Shown here: one piece after another, positions 2,525 through 58,429 of the stretch
How the letters are laid out: every line of letters begins with the position of its first letter
Position numbering within the stretch: the first letter of the stretch is position 1
DNA from: Octopus vulgaris
Taxonomy: Eukaryota
Reading direction: 5' to 3'
DNA length: 64,000 bases
NCBI GenBank assembly: GCA_951406725.2
Contig: OX597820.1
Location: forward strand, 126,728,001 to 126,792,000
Translations under genes and position numbers: made by a program
The notes under the pieces: generated by a model
What the model saw: only the letters and a program-made list of their open reading frames with translations
The model's database searches: none
Told to the model about the DNA's origin: nothing

Positions 2525-3645
2525 AAAACTTAGATAAAACTTAGATATGTTTCGACCAGAGATTGGTCCAGGCCATGTCTAACTTAATAGCACCACCTGA
2601 TAGGATTATTCGAATCCTGTTTAAGTCAAGTTTTGTTCAAGTAGTGAGTTCTTGTTGGGTGAGTTGTATCCAGTTTTGTTCAAGTAGTGAGTTCTTGTTG
2701 GGTGAGTTGTATCCAATTATGGGTGGCTTATCTGGTATTCTTTGAAGGAATCTATCCAGACTCTGTTTGAAGTTGATGGGATCCTTTTCCTCTTTGATCT
2801 CCCTCGGGACAATGTTAAATAGGGCAGGGCCTGTTGAGGAAAAGAAATTATGTTGCAGTGTACATGTATGTTGTGATCTTGAATTTGGCAGGGGACGTAT
2901 AGCCCGTGGTCCAAGTCTCGGATGAACCTTGAAGCTAATGTTTAGGTCGTTTGGGCAAAGTTGGCGGTATATTTTCCACATCATACAAATGATGTACCGC
3001 TCACGGCGACGCTGGAGGGAGTAAAGTTTCAAGGCTTTAAGGCGATCCCAATAGTTGAGAGCAGCCATGTCTTCAATTTGTTTAGTGAGAGCCCTCTGGG
3101 GTGACTCAATTCTGGAGATGTTTTGTCTTGTGTGAGGAGACCACAGTGGGCAGCAGTATTCAAGGTGTGGCCGTACAAAGGATGAAAAAAGTGGTATGAT
3201 GACACCTTGTTCTCTGGACCGGAAAGTTCTTAAGATCCAGGAACTCATCCTACGAGCTGTATCGACCTTCTTGTTGATGTGTGCACTCCAACTGAGATCG
3301 TCATCAACAATTACACCCAGGTCTCTGATATTGTTAGAGGCTGTGAGCGGTTCCCCTGAAGGAAGAGAGTATGGTTGTTTTAGTGAGGAATTTCTTCCAA
3401 AATGCATCAGCTCAAATTTTCCCTCATTCAGTTGCATTTTGTTTCTGTCTGCCCATTGACTCACAGCATATAGGTCAGACTGGAGTTGAGTTCGGTCTGC
3501 TTCTTCATTGACGATTTGCTGGAGCTTAGTGTCATCAGCGAATATTTTCACTTTGCAGTGATGTACGACACTGGAAAGGTCGTTTACATAAATTATGAAG
3601 AGTAGCGGACCCAAAACAGTTCCCTGGGGAACACCGCTGGTGACT
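2525..3645 (-). mobile_element. 5'-truncated CR1/L2-group LINE
   Basis: RT ORF (below), a short 3' UTR and a tandem tail (TCTAAGTTTTA)2 on - abutting (TA)n. Confidence 0.9.
2637..3644 (-). pseudogene. Reverse transcriptase C-terminal half (CR1-like ORF2), open for more than 330 codons
   Basis: VTSGVPQGTVLGPLLFIIYVNDL, FADDTK, RDLGVIVD, VRPHLEYCCPLWSP and YSLQRRRER motifs. Lacks the endonuclease and N-terminal RT. Confidence 0.92.
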
Positions 3646-3724
3646 ATATGATGATGATGACGATGATGATGATGATATATATGTGTATGTATGTATATAT
3701 ATGTATGTATGTATGTATGTATAT

Positions 3725-3860
3725 CATCATCATCGTTTAACGTCCGCTTTCCATGCTAGCATGGGTTGGACAGTTCAACTGGGGTCTGGGAAGACCGAAG
3801 GCTGCACCAGGCCAGTCAGATCTGGCAGTGTTTCTACAGCTGGATGCCCTTCCTAACGTC
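3725..3860 (-). mobile_element. 3' UTR fragment of RTE-type LINE with (GAT)n tail
   Basis: catcatcgtttaacgtccgctttccatgctagcatgggttgg...ggatgcccttcctaac matches the 3' end of 47631-48483. Similar pieces at 4185-4320, 20545-20690, 27895-28030, 55795-55860 and 63880-63980. Confidence 0.85.
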
Positions 3861-5865: not shown

Positions 5866-5938
5866 ATGCAGCTGATGAGGATAAATCAAGTATACGTTTG
5901 GCAAGCGTATTTTGAAAAATCTGAAACCAGTACTGCAT
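5866..5938 (+). ncRNA. Type I hammerhead ribozyme motif
   Basis: ATGCAG CTGATGA GGAT..(TCAAGTATACGTTT/AAGCGTATTTTGA)..ATCT GAAA CCAG TA CTGCAT. Perfect 6-bp stem I. Confidence 0.8.
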
Positions 5939-7029: not shown

Positions 7030-7202
7030 CATAGGAAAAGGAAAGATCCAAGGAAGGGAAGACGAAAGAAAAAAATTGCATTGTGTATATATGTATATAT
7101 GCATGTATGTATATATATGTGTGTTTGTGTATGTATATGTATATATATGTATGCATGTATATTCTTGTGTGTGTGTGTAATTAAACAAATAATATACATA
7201 CA

Positions 7203-7240
<38 letters not shown>

Positions 7241-7244
<4 letters not shown>

Positions 7245-8856
7245 GGGGGTAAATAAGTATTCGTACATGTCAAAATTCTTTATTTATCTAATTTCTAATG
7301 AACATAAATGGGATATACCAATACTATATTTGCATACACATGCATAAACTAAGAATATGCAAAAGAAACTAATAAATTATAGTAACTAAGGAATTTATAT
7401 ACAATTATAAATATTTAGGGGTGAAAAAAGTATTCGTACAGAACATAAATAACTGATAATTCTGATTTAATACTTCGTAGCATAACCATTATTCAGTTCC
7501 ACTTCAACCAATCTCTTCTTGCAGTTCTTTAATCAATGACTCGCATGTTTCTTTAGGAATTTTTTCCCATTCTTCTTGACAAATTTTCTTCAAATCTGGA
7601 ATTCACGTTGGGGCTCTTGAATGAATTTTAATTTTCAAATAACGCCACAAATTTTCAATGTGGTTCAAGTCAGGTGACTGGCTTGGCCATTCTAATAAGT
7701 TTATATTGTGATCGACAATCCATTTTGTGGTAGACTTCGCCGGTGCTTAGGGTCGTTATCCTGTTGTAAAACCCACCCTTCACAAAGCTGGAGCTTTTCT
7801 ACAGAGTCCGATAAATTATTATTTAAAATATTTTGGTACATCTCTGCATTCATTCTACCATCTATCACATGTAAATTGCCAGTACCATTTGCAGAGAATA
7901 CACCCCCACACCATGATGTTGCCACCTCCAAACTTTATGGTAGGAATTGTGTTTTTCGGCGAATAGGCAGTACCATCTTTCCTTCAAACATGGCTACGCG
8001 AATTTCATTCAAACAATTCAATTTTCGACTCGTCTGTCCATAGAACATTTTCCCAGAATGTATCAGGTTTATCTTTATGTTCATAAACAAATTTTAAACG
8101 GGCATCTCTATGCCTTTTAGTCAACAGCGGAGTTTTTCTGGGAGAGCATGACTTCAGTCCATTTCTATGAAGTTCATTGCTGATTGTTCGTAGCGTAACA
8201 TTAGTCCCTGAAGCTAACAAATCTTCTTGCAACTCTTTTCTGGTGATCATTGCGCTTTTTTTTTTTATTCTTCACTTCATTTTTCTTAAAGATCTAGGAG
8301 AAATCTTGCATGGTGCACTGGATCTTATTCTGTTTTTAACAGTTCCCAATTTTTTATATCTTTGAATAAATGAAGATATTGTAGAAAATGGAATACAAAG
8401 GGTCTCTGATATTTTCCTGTAACTTTTACCTGCTTTCCACTGTTCAATAATTAAGTGTTTTCACTGTATTTGTGAGTTCTTTACTTTTCGCCATTATTAC
8501 GATATCACTTTATGTTGTCTCTGTCCTGAATGAAGAAGCTAGCGTTTTGACACTTAAAAATGACAACTGATAAGATTATTGGAACAAACGAGAAAGTTCT
8601 AGTAAAAAAAAAATTATTTTAACAGTATTTTGTGGCATAGAAAATCATAAATTTATTCTATACAAATACTTTTTTCACCCCTAAATATTTATGATTGTAT
8701 ATAAATTCCTTAGTTACTATAATTTATTAGTTTCTTTTGCATACTCTTAGTTTATGCATGTGTATGCAAATATAGTATTGGTATATACCATTTATGTTCA
8801 TTAGAAATTAAATGAATAAAGAATTTTGACATGTACGAATATTTATTTCCCCCCAC

Positions 8857-8858
<2 letters not shown>
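7241..8858 (-). mobile_element. Full-length Tc1 (DD34E) transposon with about 205-bp IR/DR-type TIRs and a disrupted transposase (about 7467-8494)
   Basis: 7241-7443 is the reverse complement of about 8655-8858. Sits in (TA)n. Motifs [29 protein letters not shown] and GYATKY*. Frameshifts present. Confidence 0.95.
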
Positions 8859-8922
<64 letters not shown>

Positions 8923-35780: not shown

Positions 35781-35909
35781 TCATGGATGTCTTTTAATCC
35801 AGAAATGCTTCTTTCTTTTGTGCTTCTCTTCTAACTTTTCACTTTCTGATTTGTAATCAGTGGCAGCGGCGGAAAGGAAAACAAATATAGTTCAAAGAGT
35901 GCAGAAGTT

Positions 35910-36453
35910 TAACTTGATTCACTGTTTAGCTTGATTACCCATTTATAATTTGATCCACTGTTTAAACTGATTCGATGTTTAACTTCATTGACTATGTAAC
36001 TTGATTCACCATCTGTCTTGAACCACCATTTGTCTTGATTCACTGTTTATCTTCAACCACCATTTATCTTGATTCACTGCTTAACTTAATACACCATTTA
36101 GCTTGATCCCCTGTTTAGCTTGATTCAGTGTTTAGCTTGATTACCCATTTATAATTTGATCCACTGTTTAAACTGATTCAATGTTTAACTTCAGTGACTA
36201 TGTAACTTGATTCACCATCTGTCTTGAACCACCATTTGTCTTGATTCACTGCTTAACTTGATACACCATTTAGCTTGATCCCCTGTTTAGCTTGATTCAG
36301 TGTTTAGCTTGATTCACTATTTAGTTTTATTCACTGTTTACTTTGATTCACTGCTTAGCTTGATTCATTATTTTTCTTGATTCACTCTTTAGCTTGTGTC
36401 ACTATTTAGCATGATTCCCTGTTTAGTTTAATTCACTGTTTAGCTTGATTCAC
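35910..36453. repeat. 17-bp minisatellite (cttgattcactgtttag) with a higher-order repeat of about 206 bp
   Basis: About 30 diverged units. The block 35923-36045 recurs at 36129-36251. Confidence 0.9.
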
Positions 36454-45249: not shown

Positions 45250-46030
45250 CACATTTTCTTTTTTTTTTGCCAAATAAACAAACGCACAATATATTCATTT
45301 TTCACTTCAGCTTTATTATTCAGTTCTATATTTAAGAGATGAGGAATTATGTACATTTTTTACATTATTTACAAATGACGGATATTTGTCCTCATCTTGT
45401 TTGTTGTTAACATAATGTTTCGGCTGATATACCCTCCAGCCTTCATCAAGTGTCTTGGGGAAATTCCAAACCTGGGTTCTCATTCCTAAGGTATTTTTCA
45501 ATGTTGTTATTATTATTATTATTATTCACGTCACTGACCAGAATCGGACTCGGAATCTTGGGGTTAGTAGTCCACTAAGTGATATGCCCGTGCGCTTTTC
45601 CCAAGACATCTGATGAAGGTTGGTGGGTGTATCAACCAAAATGTGTTAACAATAAACAAGATGAGGACAAATATCCATCAATTGTAAATAACATAAATAA
45701 GCTTTATCATTGTTCTTGTTTTATGTCCTTTGTCCAGAAATATTTTGTGACACATCTGTGACCTCTTAAGTGACTGTCCATGTCTCCTGCTGTCTTGTTT
45801 ATTTCACTCTGTTTCTTTGGTGTCTTTCTATGGTGTGTCAGACCACAGAAAGGCAGAATGGACTAAACAGAACAGGAGACACATATGATGGAGAGTCGCT
45901 GAAGAGGTCACAGGATGAGTGATGAAAGATTTCAGACAAAGATCACTAAAATAGGAACAATGATAAAGCTGGAGTGAAGAGCAAGCATAAAGTACATGAG
46001 TTTATTTGGCACACACAAAAAAATGTGACT
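45250..46030. mobile_element. Old foldback (inverted-arm) element carrying hammerhead motifs, with its left arm interrupted by 45321-45699
   Basis: 45250-45320 joined to 45700-45810 is the reverse complement of about 45865-46030. Motif GTCG CTGAAGA G GTCAC..GTGAT GAAA GAT TTC AGAC at 45895-45937. Confidence 0.7.
45321..45699 (-). mobile_element. tRNA-head / hammerhead-tail element (family D), copy 1, with inverted tail copy
   Basis: TSD agctttat(t/c)att at 45309-45320 and 45700-45711. tRNA-like head 45525-45592 (-). Hammerheads at 45409-45454 (-) and 45605-45647 (+). Confidence 0.85.
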
Positions 46031-52382: not shown

Positions 52383-52970
52383 TTGGTGAATTGAAGAAAT
52401 GGAGCTGAACGCAGATTGAACAGAAATCGTTTTATTTCATTCTACACGTGTTTCGAAAGGCACAATTTACCAAAATCCGATTGAATAATGGGACCATATT
52501 GTGTCTTTCTCTTCAGGAAGAAATAGGAAATCCATTGGAAAAAACAAAAACAGAACAGAGGCGGAGCAAAACAAATCGAACTAGGCTCCTAAGAGCCCAT
52601 GGCGAAACTAGTTCGATTTGTTTTGCTCCGCCTCTGTTCTGTTTTTGTTTTTTCCAACGGATTTCCTATTTCTTCCTGAAGAGAAAGACACAATATGGTC
52701 CCATTATTCAATCGGATTTTGGTAAATTTGTGCCTTTCGAAACACGTGTAGAATGAAATAAAACGATTTCTGTTCAATCTGCGTTCAGCTCCATTTCTTC
52801 AATTCACCAATAATATTTTAATTTCAATTATCCGCACCAACGCACGGTTGCAACACCATATGGTTGTACCTCCAACCGTGCTGTTTACTGCTGTGATTTT
52901 TGCTACCAAGGTATCGGTTAAACTTTTGATTAATCTACTACAAGATTATTCATCTTTCTATTTCACATAA
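52381..52970. mobile_element. (TA)n-embedded Penelope-like terminal structure: near-perfect inverted repeat of about 203 bp plus a one-sided extension
   Basis: 52382-52584 versus 52608-52811, 23-bp spacer, about 2 differences. Confidence 0.9.
52667..52760 (+). ncRNA. Intact type I hammerhead ribozyme (mirror copy at 52433-52525 -)
   Basis: TATTTCTTC CTGAAGA GAAAGACACAA..TTGTGCCTTTC GAAA CACGTG TA GAATGAAATA. Confidence 0.85.
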
Positions 52971-53229: not shown

Positions 53230-53882
53230 GTGTACTGTTCCATGATGGTAAGATCAACAGAACTCCATTTGGTGAGAGATAAATATTATATATTCAAATA
53301 TGTTTTTATATTCTACTATTAGTTTCATATGCTGAGAGCATGCCAGACAGTATCTTTTAAAACGTTTGGTGTCCTAGCACAATCATCAGGCACAGCTCAC
53401 ATAGCATAGTGAAATAAAAATGGGACAAGAAGGGAGAAAAGTTGAGTGAAGGCAAGAAAGTAGATATAAAAGGTGGAAGGTTGAAAAACTGGAAGACGAA
53501 GAAAAAAACAGAAAGAAGCAAAAGTGGGGAATTAGAGTTGTTTCCCATAAGACCATAAAATATAAGGCTGAAAAGACAGTGGCATAGAGTCTGTGGTACA
53601 GTTCTACTACAGACTCTAAGCCACTATCTTTTCAGTACAGCATTATATTGGGGCGTGGAGTTTAAAGATTCTGCTGATGATACTTGTGTCTATGTTTATA
53701 ATAATAGCTTGGGGTGGTTGGAATCTCTATGGTTATAAACAGTTTCCTCAATGGGAGTTCTATAGCAGTAGCCCTTGCTTGTCTTAAAGTCTAGGATTAC
53801 ATTCAGGAAGTTGATCTTTATTAAGATTAACTTTCTGGATGAAATGTTATAATTATTTGATTGGTACATACATAAAATACAA

Positions 53883-54032
53883 CTTTATTTACATTATTTA
53901 CATTTGACGGATATTTGTCCTCATCTTGTTTGTTGTTAACACAACATTACAGCTGATATATACCCTCCAGCCTTCATCAGGTGTCTTGGGGAAATTTCGA
54001 ACCTGGGTTCTCATTCCTAAGGTATTATTATT

Positions 54033-54064
<32 letters not shown>

Positions 54065-54115
54065 TATCATCATCATCGTCATCATCATCATCATCATTAT
54101 CATTATTATTATTAC

Positions 54116-54149
<34 letters not shown>

Positions 54150-54969
54150 GAGTGAGAGAGCAGTGCATGCCATCAAAGTGACACTGGGGTAAAATATACG
54201 AAGCCCAATATACCCATCATGACTACATGTCTGATAAGGGTACACCAGGCACATGCATCACAACCATATGTGTGCGACATGGTGATCTCATATCAAGATA
54301 AACAGCACATGACCTTGCAGGTGGGGCCCAGTTAGAATTTTCTTCAGGTTGAGTAGCCCATCCCGCTCAAAAGGTCCCTGAATAAGGGTTGTTTAAGGAT
54401 GTTGAAAGAACCACCCATGTTTCCAGAGGTGAATTGTTCAAACCCCAAAGAATCCCTCTCAACACATGGCTATGATGCTCCCCCACTACTTCTGCTCATG
54501 ATCAGAGATGCACATATCGTCAGCCAATAAGGGACATGCTCAACTGGTTAAGGTCAAACAACTGACAAGCAAATCTGTGGTATTGAGCAGAATATTTGCT
54601 GTAGCCCATCTTTTATACCAAGACAAAACAACGTACATGATAACACTTCCAATCAGTTAAGATCAGAAGACATGAGAGCAACTGCCTGGTACTGCATCAT
54701 TATCATTATTATTATTATCATTATTATTATTATTCAGGTCACTGACTGGAATGGAACTCAGAATCTTGGGGTTAGTAGCCTGCGCTCTTAACCACTACAC
54801 CATATGCCCAGGTTCGAAATTTCCCCAAGACACCTGATGAAGGCTGGAGGGTATATCAGCCGAAACATTGTGTTAACAACAAAACAAGATGAGGACAAAA
54901 AAAAAAATCCATCTAATGTAAATAATGTAAATAATGTACATAATTCCTCATCTCTTAAATACAGAACTG
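53883..54969 (-). mobile_element. Family D element, copy 2: inverted tail, tRNA head, (AAT)n linker with nested insert, hammerhead tail
   Basis: TSD taaaatacaa at 53873-53882 and 54970-54979. Head 54733-54809 (-) with TGGTGTAGTGG and GAGTTCCATTCC boxes. Hammerheads at 53938-53985 (-) and 54829-54874 (+). Confidence 0.88.
54148..54700 (-). mobile_element. Retroposon 3' fragment ending in (AAT)n, nested in the family D linker; partial copy at 34755-34925
   Basis: Shared aaacccc/aaaagaatccctct...ctgtgg.attgagcagaatatttgc. Confidence 0.7.
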
Positions 54970-54990
54970 TAAAATACAATTGTTTGAAAT

Positions 54991-57357: not shown

Positions 57358-57514
57358 ATATATACATATGTATATATCTATGAGTATGTTTGTATTTTTC
57401 CCAACCACTGCTTGACAATTGCTGGTTTGTTTACAACCCCATAACTTAGTAGACTGGCAGAAAAGATCGATTACATAAGTACCAGGTTTGAAAAAGAAAT
57501 ACTAGGGTTGATTT

Positions 57515-57785
57515 ACATTATTTACCTTATTTACATTATTTACATTTGACGGATATTTGTCCTCATCTTGTTTGTTGTTAACACAACGTTTCGGCTGATG
57601 CACCCTCCAGCCTTCATCAGGTGTCTTGGGAAAATTTTGAATCTGGGTTCTCATTCCTAAGGTATTTTTTGATGTTATTGTCATTATTATTATAAAAACA
57701 AAACAAGATGAGGACCAAAAAAATCCATCAAATGTAAATAATGTAAATAATGTACATAATTCCTCATCTCTTAAATAAAGAACTG
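57515..57785 (-). mobile_element. Family D element, copy 3 (5'-truncated in the linker, inverted tail piece), inserted in a SINE A tail
   Basis: TSD tag(g/a)gttgattt at 57503-57514 and 57786-57797. Confidence 0.85.
57580..57625 (-). ncRNA. Intact family D hammerhead motif
   Basis: GACAC CTGATGA A GGCTG gagggtgcat CAGCC GAAA CG TT GTGTT. Confidence 0.82.
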
Positions 57786-58429
57786 TAGAGTTGATTTGTT
57801 TGACTAAACTCTTTGAGGTGGTGCCCCAGCATGACCCCAGTTCAAATACTGAAACAAATGAAAGATAAAATTGGTAATACAAGGTGTTGTAGAAGACATG
57901 CCCACCAAGGCAAATGCAGATAAATATTTATTATATTAAAGTGACAGAATATACAAATGGCATTCCATCAGTTATGAGTCATTCTTTTCTAAGAGGCAGC
58001 CTCTTACCTTTACCTCACACCTGTCACTTTCTATCTAATTGCCATGCCCAACCCACAATATTCCTAACATATTTTCCTTTTATTTCTTTTTCTATTGTTG
58101 CTTCGAATACTTCTATTCTTTTGCCATGGCCACCTACGTTCTTTATTTCAAAAACTACCTATTTTGTTTTTTTATTCTTTTACTTGTTTCAATCATTTGA
58201 CTGCAGCCATGCTGGAGCACCACCTTTAGTCAAACAAATTGACCCTAGGACTTATTCTTTGTAAGCCTAGTACTTATTCTATTAGTCTCTTTTGCCAAAC
58301 TGCTAAGTTAAAGGAACGTAAACACACCAACATCAGTTGTCAAGCGATGGTGGGGGGACAAACGCAGACACATAAATACATCTATAAATGTGTAATGGTG
58401 TCTGTGTGTGTGTTTGAGGTTACTCTAAC

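Follow-up and report, generated by a model that had tools for sequence, protein, structure and literature searches.

A 64,000-nt stretch of the Octopus vulgaris genome (contig OX597820.1, positions 126,728,001 to 126,792,000; hereafter the window) carries three related insertions built from a tRNA-like head, an (AAT)n linker and a tail with a hammerhead ribozyme motif. We show that head, linker, hammerhead and tail together form the pseudo-long terminal repeat (pLTR) of one autonomous retrotransposon family of the Penelope/Poseidon type. The repeats in the window are pLTR copies of this element, whose tRNA-Arg-like head is likely the RNA polymerase III (Pol III) promoter for the whole element, a reading to which we assign a probability of roughly 0.6. 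The short copies, which look like short interspersed nuclear elements (SINEs), are most likely products of the same RNAs as the autonomous element. An earlier note on the window had proposed a new non-autonomous class, a tRNA-promoter SINE with a hammerhead tail. A separate SINE with a borrowed tail had to be abandoned, as the head lies in the autonomous pLTR and the short copies show no diagnostic SINE variants. The note was right that the machinery is that of Penelope and not of a long interspersed nuclear element (LINE): the tail is the N-terminal region of Penelope with two fixed end sites, and no LINE 3′ end was found.

The repeats are terminal repeats of an autonomous Penelope

We searched the whole genome (2.8 Gb, 227 contigs) for exact matches and found 5,415 occurrences of a hammerhead 23-mer, 2,717 of a head 29-mer and 735 of a 24-mer located just upstream of the head. 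The reversed controls gave 0 in all three cases, and the repeats are therefore not chance matches. The 23-mer is matched exactly by 31 of 103 arms not selected for it, which extrapolates to about 18,000 hammerhead arms, and six elements per 400 kb of evenly spaced stretches extrapolate to up to about 40,000 copies. We estimate the copy number at 10,000-40,000 and the divergence at about 5 %. The variation among copies is mostly CpG decay, and copies of the open reading frame (ORF) differ from the commonest base by 5.5 %.

In a few copies the sequence continues upstream beyond the head and enters a reading frame, which is the GIY-YIG end of a Penelope ORF. The genome search with this ORF end (150 of 4,980 candidates scored, 30 loci fetched) placed the head about 26 nt behind the stop codon of an ORF for reverse transcriptase (RT) and GIY-YIG endonuclease (EN) in 28 of the 30 loci; one locus has the tail without the head and one has neither. 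The RT-GIY-YIG ORF is linked to both modules, and the expectation that head and tail travel together was borne out, the head being inside the pLTR of the autonomous element itself. In order, the unit comprises the ORF stop and 26 nt of sequence, then the head, the (AAT)n linker, the in-frame ATG and the hammerhead, and lastly two 3′ end sites separated by 31 nt, which in tandem units are followed by the ORF again. The nearly full-length copy L231 begins with an inverted short tail and a partial 5′ pLTR, the long end of which continues into the ORF with RT and GIY-YIG; after the stop come head, linker, hammerhead and tail. In near full-length copies the long tail continues into the RT-GIY ORF, and the frame is open back across tail and hammerhead to the ATG. 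The peptide of one window insertion (copy 3) aligns with the N-terminus of the 847-aa homolog P0003 (12/20 identical, E 5e-6), and that of L022 does so with 11/17 identical residues.

Of 7,999 scored, 2,744 count as relatives of the protein at E 1e-30; one cluster is named from a barnacle, and the closest homologs share 55-69 % identity. It is encoded by a single ORF with a Penelope-like element (PLE) type RT plus a GIY-YIG domain at the C-terminus. The RVT_1 match (E 2.7e-6) is just under the cut-off, Pfam PF01541 did not match the ORF, and GIY-YIG was recognised by homology and motif. A search of PDB with the protein returned weak RT matches only. Inspected by eye, the protein shows no CxxC zinc-finger linker between RT and EN, unlike Neptune/Nematis, and a quick tree built without named reference PLEs sets the family apart from the Neptune-type ORFs of the genome. 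A Pfam GIY-YIG search of the genome recovered only other, mostly Neptune-type Penelopes, and none of the 70 fetched loci had the tail as its own pLTR; the tail matches in L110, L118 and L130 were rejected as own pLTRs, being separate insertions. The search for a second Poseidon-type family in the genome largely returned the same loci, compared by place. Scans for related loci based on P0003 in metagenomes, and with an alignment in viral contigs, found nothing. Two side observations were made on other Penelopes. In the scan of prokaryote assemblies, three short contigs (L301-L303) from bacterial metagenome-assembled genomes carry fragments of a Penelope ORF, likely host contamination. The loci L121-L123 represent a young Neptune-type family with many intact 781-aa frames and, by eye, an apparent U3-A8 hammerhead variant in the pLTR.

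We also considered that the short copies may be an independent Pol III SINE lineage with its own masters, mobilised in trans by an autonomous partner that is transcribed otherwise. The sharp 5′ ends at the head would suit such a lineage, as would the several-fold excess of short over ORF-bearing copies in the exact counts given above, and in principle any head-bearing copy could be transcribed. However, the head sits in the autonomous pLTR, and the copies L321 and L323, which are initiated at the head, continue through the tail into the ORF. No diagnostic variants were seen either: with 29 top-similarity loci left out, the short arms (81 heads, 162 tails) and the ORF-linked arms (46 and 44) agree in the commonest base at 254 of 255 columns and differ at one, so no separate SINE lineage is visible. 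The repeats do have the small-RNA-derived head with A and B boxes that is typical of SINEs, but they have neither a LINE-derived 3′ end with a poly(A) or simple-repeat tail nor the standing of an independent non-autonomous lineage. We regard a separate lineage as improbable, and some trans-mobilisation starting from short copies is compatible with their being by-products of the autonomous element, the explanation we favour.

The tRNA-like head, the hammerhead and the case for Pol III

The head aligned best with tRNA-Arg(TCG) of its own genome (score 61, best shuffle 48), followed by tRNA-Arg(TCT) (58, best shuffle 37), in a comparison with 25 distinct fetched tRNA genes, an incomplete set. This alignment to the genome's own tRNA-Arg genes suggests that the head is tRNA-Arg-derived. 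It is not a foldable tRNA, and ARAGORN called no tRNA on it. Rfam gave no hammerhead or tRNA match for the window among the matches listed (150 of 228), nor on a 331-nt copy.

The positions of 5′ ends point to the head as a start site. The head start is reached by 70 arms. Most of these (51) have their end at positions 4-13, another 15 stop within 39 nt upstream, 11 of which probably reflect alignment spill at a palindrome, and the remaining 4 go further. The 5′-end hazard is 0.052 per nt at the head vs 0-0.0025 per nt inside the ORF. Non-inverted single copies likewise begin at head positions 4-8. In partial tandems the sequence rejoins at head positions 2-6 in five junctions, which come from four insertions, and at positions 17 and 42 in two more. 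In 28 of 30 copies the stop codon is overlapped by the motif TATAAG, which lies 41 nt ahead of the A box. An interpretation of the 5′ hairpin of the head as an added leader was rejected; the sequence upstream is the ORF end.

Pol III normally transcribes short non-coding RNAs, and runs of four T (T4) act as its terminators. The commonest-base columns of 40 copies (2,585 nt) contain no T4 run at all vs 29 A4 and 7 C4 runs, and the three T4 runs of copy L234 are private mutations. Synonymous-codon shuffles gave P values of 0.035 and 0.015 for zero T4 runs. At similar T content, seven segments taken from the genome's other Penelope families each contain 3-9 T4 runs.

A similar arrangement was found in a second Penelope, L254, which comes from a set of 20 related metagenome loci. 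It is an intact tandem element with a 901-codon frame (L254 1940-4990) and 38 % identity to the octopus family. Each of its two pLTRs shows TATAAG and, 38 nt later, an A box, followed by a B box, a stretch rich in AAT and a hammerhead. None of 60 shuffles reached the A/B score of L254, and eleven control regions gave nothing or 10.6. There are two T4 runs and no T5 in 2.8 kb of L254 (0.74/kb), vs 3.4-25 per kb in 16 other long ORFs, all of which have T5 runs; among all families examined, T4 density is lowest in the two Penelopes that bear a head. Just behind the L254 hammerhead we also noticed a histone-like stem-loop with a T4 loop. In a quick tree L254 is not sister to the octopus family, and the starred branches force two label changes, meaning either two gains or an old state with losses. 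We tentatively entertain, at somewhat below even odds, a recurring type of autonomous Penelope that would have arisen at least twice. It would have exchanged its promoter for a tRNA-derived Pol III one located in the terminal repeat and cleared its 2.4-kb ORF of Pol III terminators; it would be translated from uncapped Pol III RNA and leave tens of thousands of SINE-like copies as by-products.

Regarding the hammerhead, stem I (GACAC/GUGUU), the 6-bp stem II and the core fit the minimal type I motif described by Cervera and de la Pena (PMC4209133, in the part available). Of 134 arms, 82 retain all 12 bases of the core. A compensatory stem II change (GGTTG/CAACC) had been read in one copy, but this did not stand up: a single T-A pair occurs at the position in 138 arms and the other changes mostly break the pair, so there is no evidence of selection. 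Around the predicted cut, ten arm 5′ ends fall in the 10 nt behind it vs one in the 10 nt before (P 0.006, 10 internal deletions removed). Most copies span the hammerhead motif, and uncleaved RNA is therefore the main template, with a minority of templates probably cut by the hammerhead. From the 5′-end distributions at head and cut site together we infer that the element may be both transcribed by Pol III and self-cleaved. In three raw RNA runs all 30 bins were covered, the two orientations were about equal, and depth increased steeply towards the 3′ end, like copy number; these reads neither show nor exclude Pol III transcripts.

Several points weigh against Pol III transcription. The 5′ pile-up coincides with a short palindrome, which could itself favour joining. 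The T-run depletion is moderately significant, with P 0.015-0.035 under synonymous codons and 0.03-0.69 under a per-copy dinucleotide model, and the commonest-base depth over the first 600 nt is 3-4 copies. In L254 the scarcity of T runs (two T4) has P 0.20 alone, and the A/B scan of L233, a decayed copy of the octopus family, gave a weak score (11.4, with 1 of 60 shuffles as good). The cluster of 5′ ends at the cut site was not significant against a sliding-window control (P 0.10). In the three RNA runs, read starts did not accumulate at either the head or the cut site, and both orientations were about equal. Translation of an uncapped Pol III RNA would be without explanation, and the hammerhead would be predicted to remove the in-frame ATG. 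Finally, no copy with an intact full ORF was seen (the longest open frame has 569 aa), so the family is probably inactive.

Some of these points would be expected if the family were an ordinary Penelope transcribed by Pol II or by read-through, the tRNA-derived SINE fragment being a passenger in the 3′ untranslated region of a master copy. Short copies would then be 5′-truncated ones in which the palindrome or another structure stops RT or joins the cDNAs. Truncation at the 5′ end is the rule for Penelopes (PMC8557442, accessible part), the D. virilis Penelope has a LINE-like internal promoter (PMC2377424, accessible part), and many inversion junctions of our family lie on the palindrome TGCCC-AC-GGGCA. 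The TATA-like motif could serve Pol II, the T-run statistics are moderate, and the RNA reads resemble passive read-through. A passenger does not, however, readily account for non-inverted single copies that also begin at the head, for partial tandems that rejoin at its start, for the minimal T4 density of both head-bearing Penelopes, or for the order TATA, A box, B box, hammerhead recurring in the distant L254. We consider it unlikely, though the strongest competitor to transcription of the whole element from the head by Pol III.

Insertion anatomy and the copies in the window

The repeats fall into 95 unique groups. Two outward-facing tails are present in 59 of them, another 9 are inverted in some other way and 27 have a single orientation; inversion is thus present in 68 of the 95. 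The 3′ ends are bimodal, with a short end in AATAATGTA repeats and a long end 31 nt beyond. Among the 54 of 59 two-tailed insertions that could be classified, 47 pair one long with one short end, 6 have both short and 1 both long. The more complete arm can be either of the two (26 vs 21). A target-site duplication (TSD) was scored in 32 of the 59 two-tailed insertions vs 2 of 228 mismatched flank pairs; the TSDs measure 9-15 bp and are AT-rich (79 % vs 65 % in the genome sample). Junctions of the inversion often show microhomology or the short palindrome of the head. The insertion scars, i.e. an inverted 5′-truncated arm, a one-sided 31-nt extension and 9-15 bp duplications, are Penelope signatures. 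Descriptions of Penelope insertions include an inverted 5′-truncated copy and, often restricted to one end, a tail of 30-40 bp (PMC8557442, accessible part). In the available text on PAc, the tail was tied in vitro to two internal RT start sites, both target strands were cleaved and extended, targets were AT-rich, and uncleaved RNA was the main template (PMC11167929).

We propose that Pol III would start about 13 nt before the A box, aided by the TATA-like motif at the ORF stop, and would read through the T4-free sense strand. The RT/GIY-YIG protein would bind the region after the hammerhead in a mostly uncleaved RNA, nick AT-rich DNA with a 9-15 nt stagger and prime reverse transcription internally, so that no poly(A) would be needed. 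Both target strands may be primed, one per start site, which would give two cDNAs joined head to head through microhomology or the 5′ palindrome of the head, and inverted arms with one long and one short end would follow from this. SINE-like copies could arise by priming at the first pLTR of the RNA or on short RNAs from the last pLTR.

Spread through tandem multimers, hammerhead-cut monomers and circles, as in a retrozyme or an Sm-alpha-like element, appears very improbable to us. The layout of a Pol III head followed by a hammerhead is that of Sm-alpha (PMC6765202, accessible part), a few small tandems occur, and a minority of 5′ ends would fit cleavage. On the other hand, tandem hammerhead units, which define a retrozyme, are few and short here. 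The copies are dispersed, mostly as inverted pairs that run across an uncleaved hammerhead and bear Penelope tails and TSDs, the cut site does not set the unit ends, and no "goes back" joint was present among the joints listed in the RNA runs. A retrozyme with Penelope-like inversion was seen elsewhere, in L061 (2300-4560; C1, 20.0 Mb). Its tandemly repeated unit measures about 359 bp and has a canonical type I hammerhead; five units lie on one strand and two on the opposite one.

All three insertions of the window were confirmed at the places given by the earlier note. Its further observations that each has its own TSD, that the inverted arms lie within the TSDs and start at different points, and that poly(A) ends are missing were also borne out, and its view that the inversion arises at insertion is judged right, since the TSDs enclose the inverted arms. 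Copy 2 is flanked by an exact 10-bp TSD, TAAAATACAA (53873-53882 and 54970-54979). Its forward arm (53883-54029, - strand) ends at the short 3′ end and is at once pLTR tail and N-terminal coding region of the Penelope ORF, with the in-frame ATG at 54012-54014 (- strand). On the same strand follow the 3′ part of the linker, (AAT/GAT)n (54030-54149), its 5′ part, (AAT)n (54696-54734), and the tRNA-Arg-like head, the likely Pol III promoter (54735-54809), with the A box at 54792-54802 and the B box at 54749-54759. The inverted arm (54807-54969, + strand) overlaps the head by 3 nt at the junction and carries the 31-nt long-end extension at about 54939-54969. The copy reaches 1.1 kb because an unrelated 546-bp high-copy repeat is nested in the linker (54150-54695, - strand), a later insertion that does not belong to the element. 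This repeat ends in (AAT)n, has 42 matches in the fetched loci and occurs in 8 of 40 stretches of 10 kb chosen at random. In other copies, too, later insertions have frequently hit the linker.

Copy 1 is bounded by a 12-bp TSD with one mismatch (45309-45320 and 45700-45711). It has a forward arm with the long end (45321-45500, - strand), the linker with a head remnant (45501-45589, - strand; B box at 45541-45551) and an inverted arm with the short end (45596-45699, + strand), which bears the single T-A stem II variant. Copy 3 is truncated in the linker and consists of a forward arm with the short end (57515-57692, - strand), whose translation is the one that matches P0003, and an inverted arm with the long end (57693-57786, + strand), which starts about 4 nt behind the predicted hammerhead cut. 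Its 11-bp TSD with one mismatch (57504-57514 and 57787-57797) was read by eye, as the automatic caller missed it. The claim of a tRNA-like head with both boxes therefore holds for copy 2; in copy 1 the head is, as had been noted, partly deleted, with the A box gone, and copy 3 is headless. The hammerhead had been assigned to the tails in general. Its core is intact in the inverted arm of copy 2 (54829-54874, + strand, predicted cut after 54869) and the forward arm of copy 3 (57580-57625, - strand, predicted cut after 57585), but it is decayed in the forward arm of copy 2, where GAAA is lost, and carries C3>U in the forward arm of copy 1 (45409-45454, - strand).

The window contains several other features. 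Two more minimal hammerhead motifs of different sequence, at 5872 (+ strand) and 7026 (- strand), probably belong to other Penelope families. A near-perfect hairpin of about 290 bp (52450-52740) resembles a miniature inverted-repeat transposable element and gives spurious plant miRNA matches in Rfam. A fragment of a LINE-type RT lies at 2640-3755 (- strand), a 248-nt inverted repeat pair with 93 % identity at 7196-7443 and 8656-8903, and a 206/17-bp tandem array at 35907-36453.

Significance and comparison with known systems

Penelope anatomy, hammerhead SINEs and PLE-derived retrozymes are already known, and the novel part is the likely Pol III transcription of the coding element. If true, this would be a protein-coding eukaryotic retrotransposon driven by Pol III, which would blur the division of labour between LINEs and SINEs and pose a testable question on the translation of uncapped RNA and the role of the pLTR hammerhead. 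The family illustrates how SINE-like families can arise straight from an autonomous element's terminal repeat, may help to identify the partner that mobilises other hammerhead SINEs, and implies that part of the SINE annotation in such genomes is Penelope. The pairing of one long with one short end over dozens of insertions gives genomic support to two-strand priming at the two in vitro start sites of PAc. Depletion of T runs on the sense strand could serve as a cheap screen for further cases.

The short unit may already be catalogued under a SINE name, in Repbase/Dfam or in earlier octopus SINE work. Ohshima and Okada reportedly described in 1994 the octopus SINEs OK, OR1 and OR2 with tRNA-derived heads. 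OR1 and OR2 are of tRNA-Arg origin. They are described as CORE-SINEs in the available parts of two sources (PMC4824008, PMC4758252), and the octopus pLTR unit, which is without a central body, is set apart by that description. An octopus repeat annotation lists many unclassified SINEs and 190 Penelope-like families, with no hammerhead or promoter analysis in its accessible part (PMC13282606). No report of a tRNA-headed or Pol III-driven Penelope was found in a literature search whose coverage excluded most subscription papers, Repbase and Dfam.

The closest relatives in overall structure are the Penelope/Poseidon PLEs, such as Penelope of D. virilis and the Anolis Poseidon PAc. As far as the accessible parts of the sources go (PMC8557442, PMC11167929, PMC4209133), they share with our family the RT with C-terminal GIY-YIG lacking the linker zinc finger, the minimal hammerhead of the pLTR overlapping the ORF start, partial tandems, the inverted 5′-truncated arm, the 30-40 bp tail at one end and AT-rich targets. 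The octopus pLTR differs from them in its tRNA-derived head with A and B boxes and in a sense strand without T4 runs. The D. virilis Penelope has instead a TATA-less, LINE-like internal promoter with an intron (PMC2377424, accessible part).

SINE-like elements with a tRNA head and a hammerhead are already known from Schistosoma. Sm-alpha and Sj-alpha have a tRNA-derived Pol III head followed by a hammerhead and have copy numbers in the tens of thousands, as in octopus, but they are non-coding and often arranged in tandem, and the available text names no autonomous partner (PMC2770079, PMC6765202). The octopus unit, in contrast, belongs as terminal repeat to a coding Penelope; its hammerhead is minimal and its insertion scars are those of Penelope. 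Retrozymes are considered non-autonomous PLE derivatives (bioRxiv 10.64898/2026.07.22.740005; PMC7761336, both in part). The non-LTR (long terminal repeat) retrozymes of Li, Clavereau and Pollet (bioRxiv 10.64898/2026.07.22.740005) are likewise short pLTR-derived hammerhead elements moved by PLE proteins. However, they are defined as tandem repeats, are mainly from vertebrates, and in the accessible part of the source no tRNA head or Pol III promoter is described for them. Finally, TRIMp3 elements (Cassandra, Helenus, Ajax) are likewise retroelements whose terminal repeat harbours a Pol III promoter derived from a small RNA (PMC10886601, accessible part). These are non-autonomous, non-coding elements with true LTRs, a primer-binding site, a polypurine tract and TSDs of 4-5 bp, whereas the octopus repeats have TSDs of 9-15 bp and belong to a Penelope that encodes its own RT and endonuclease.
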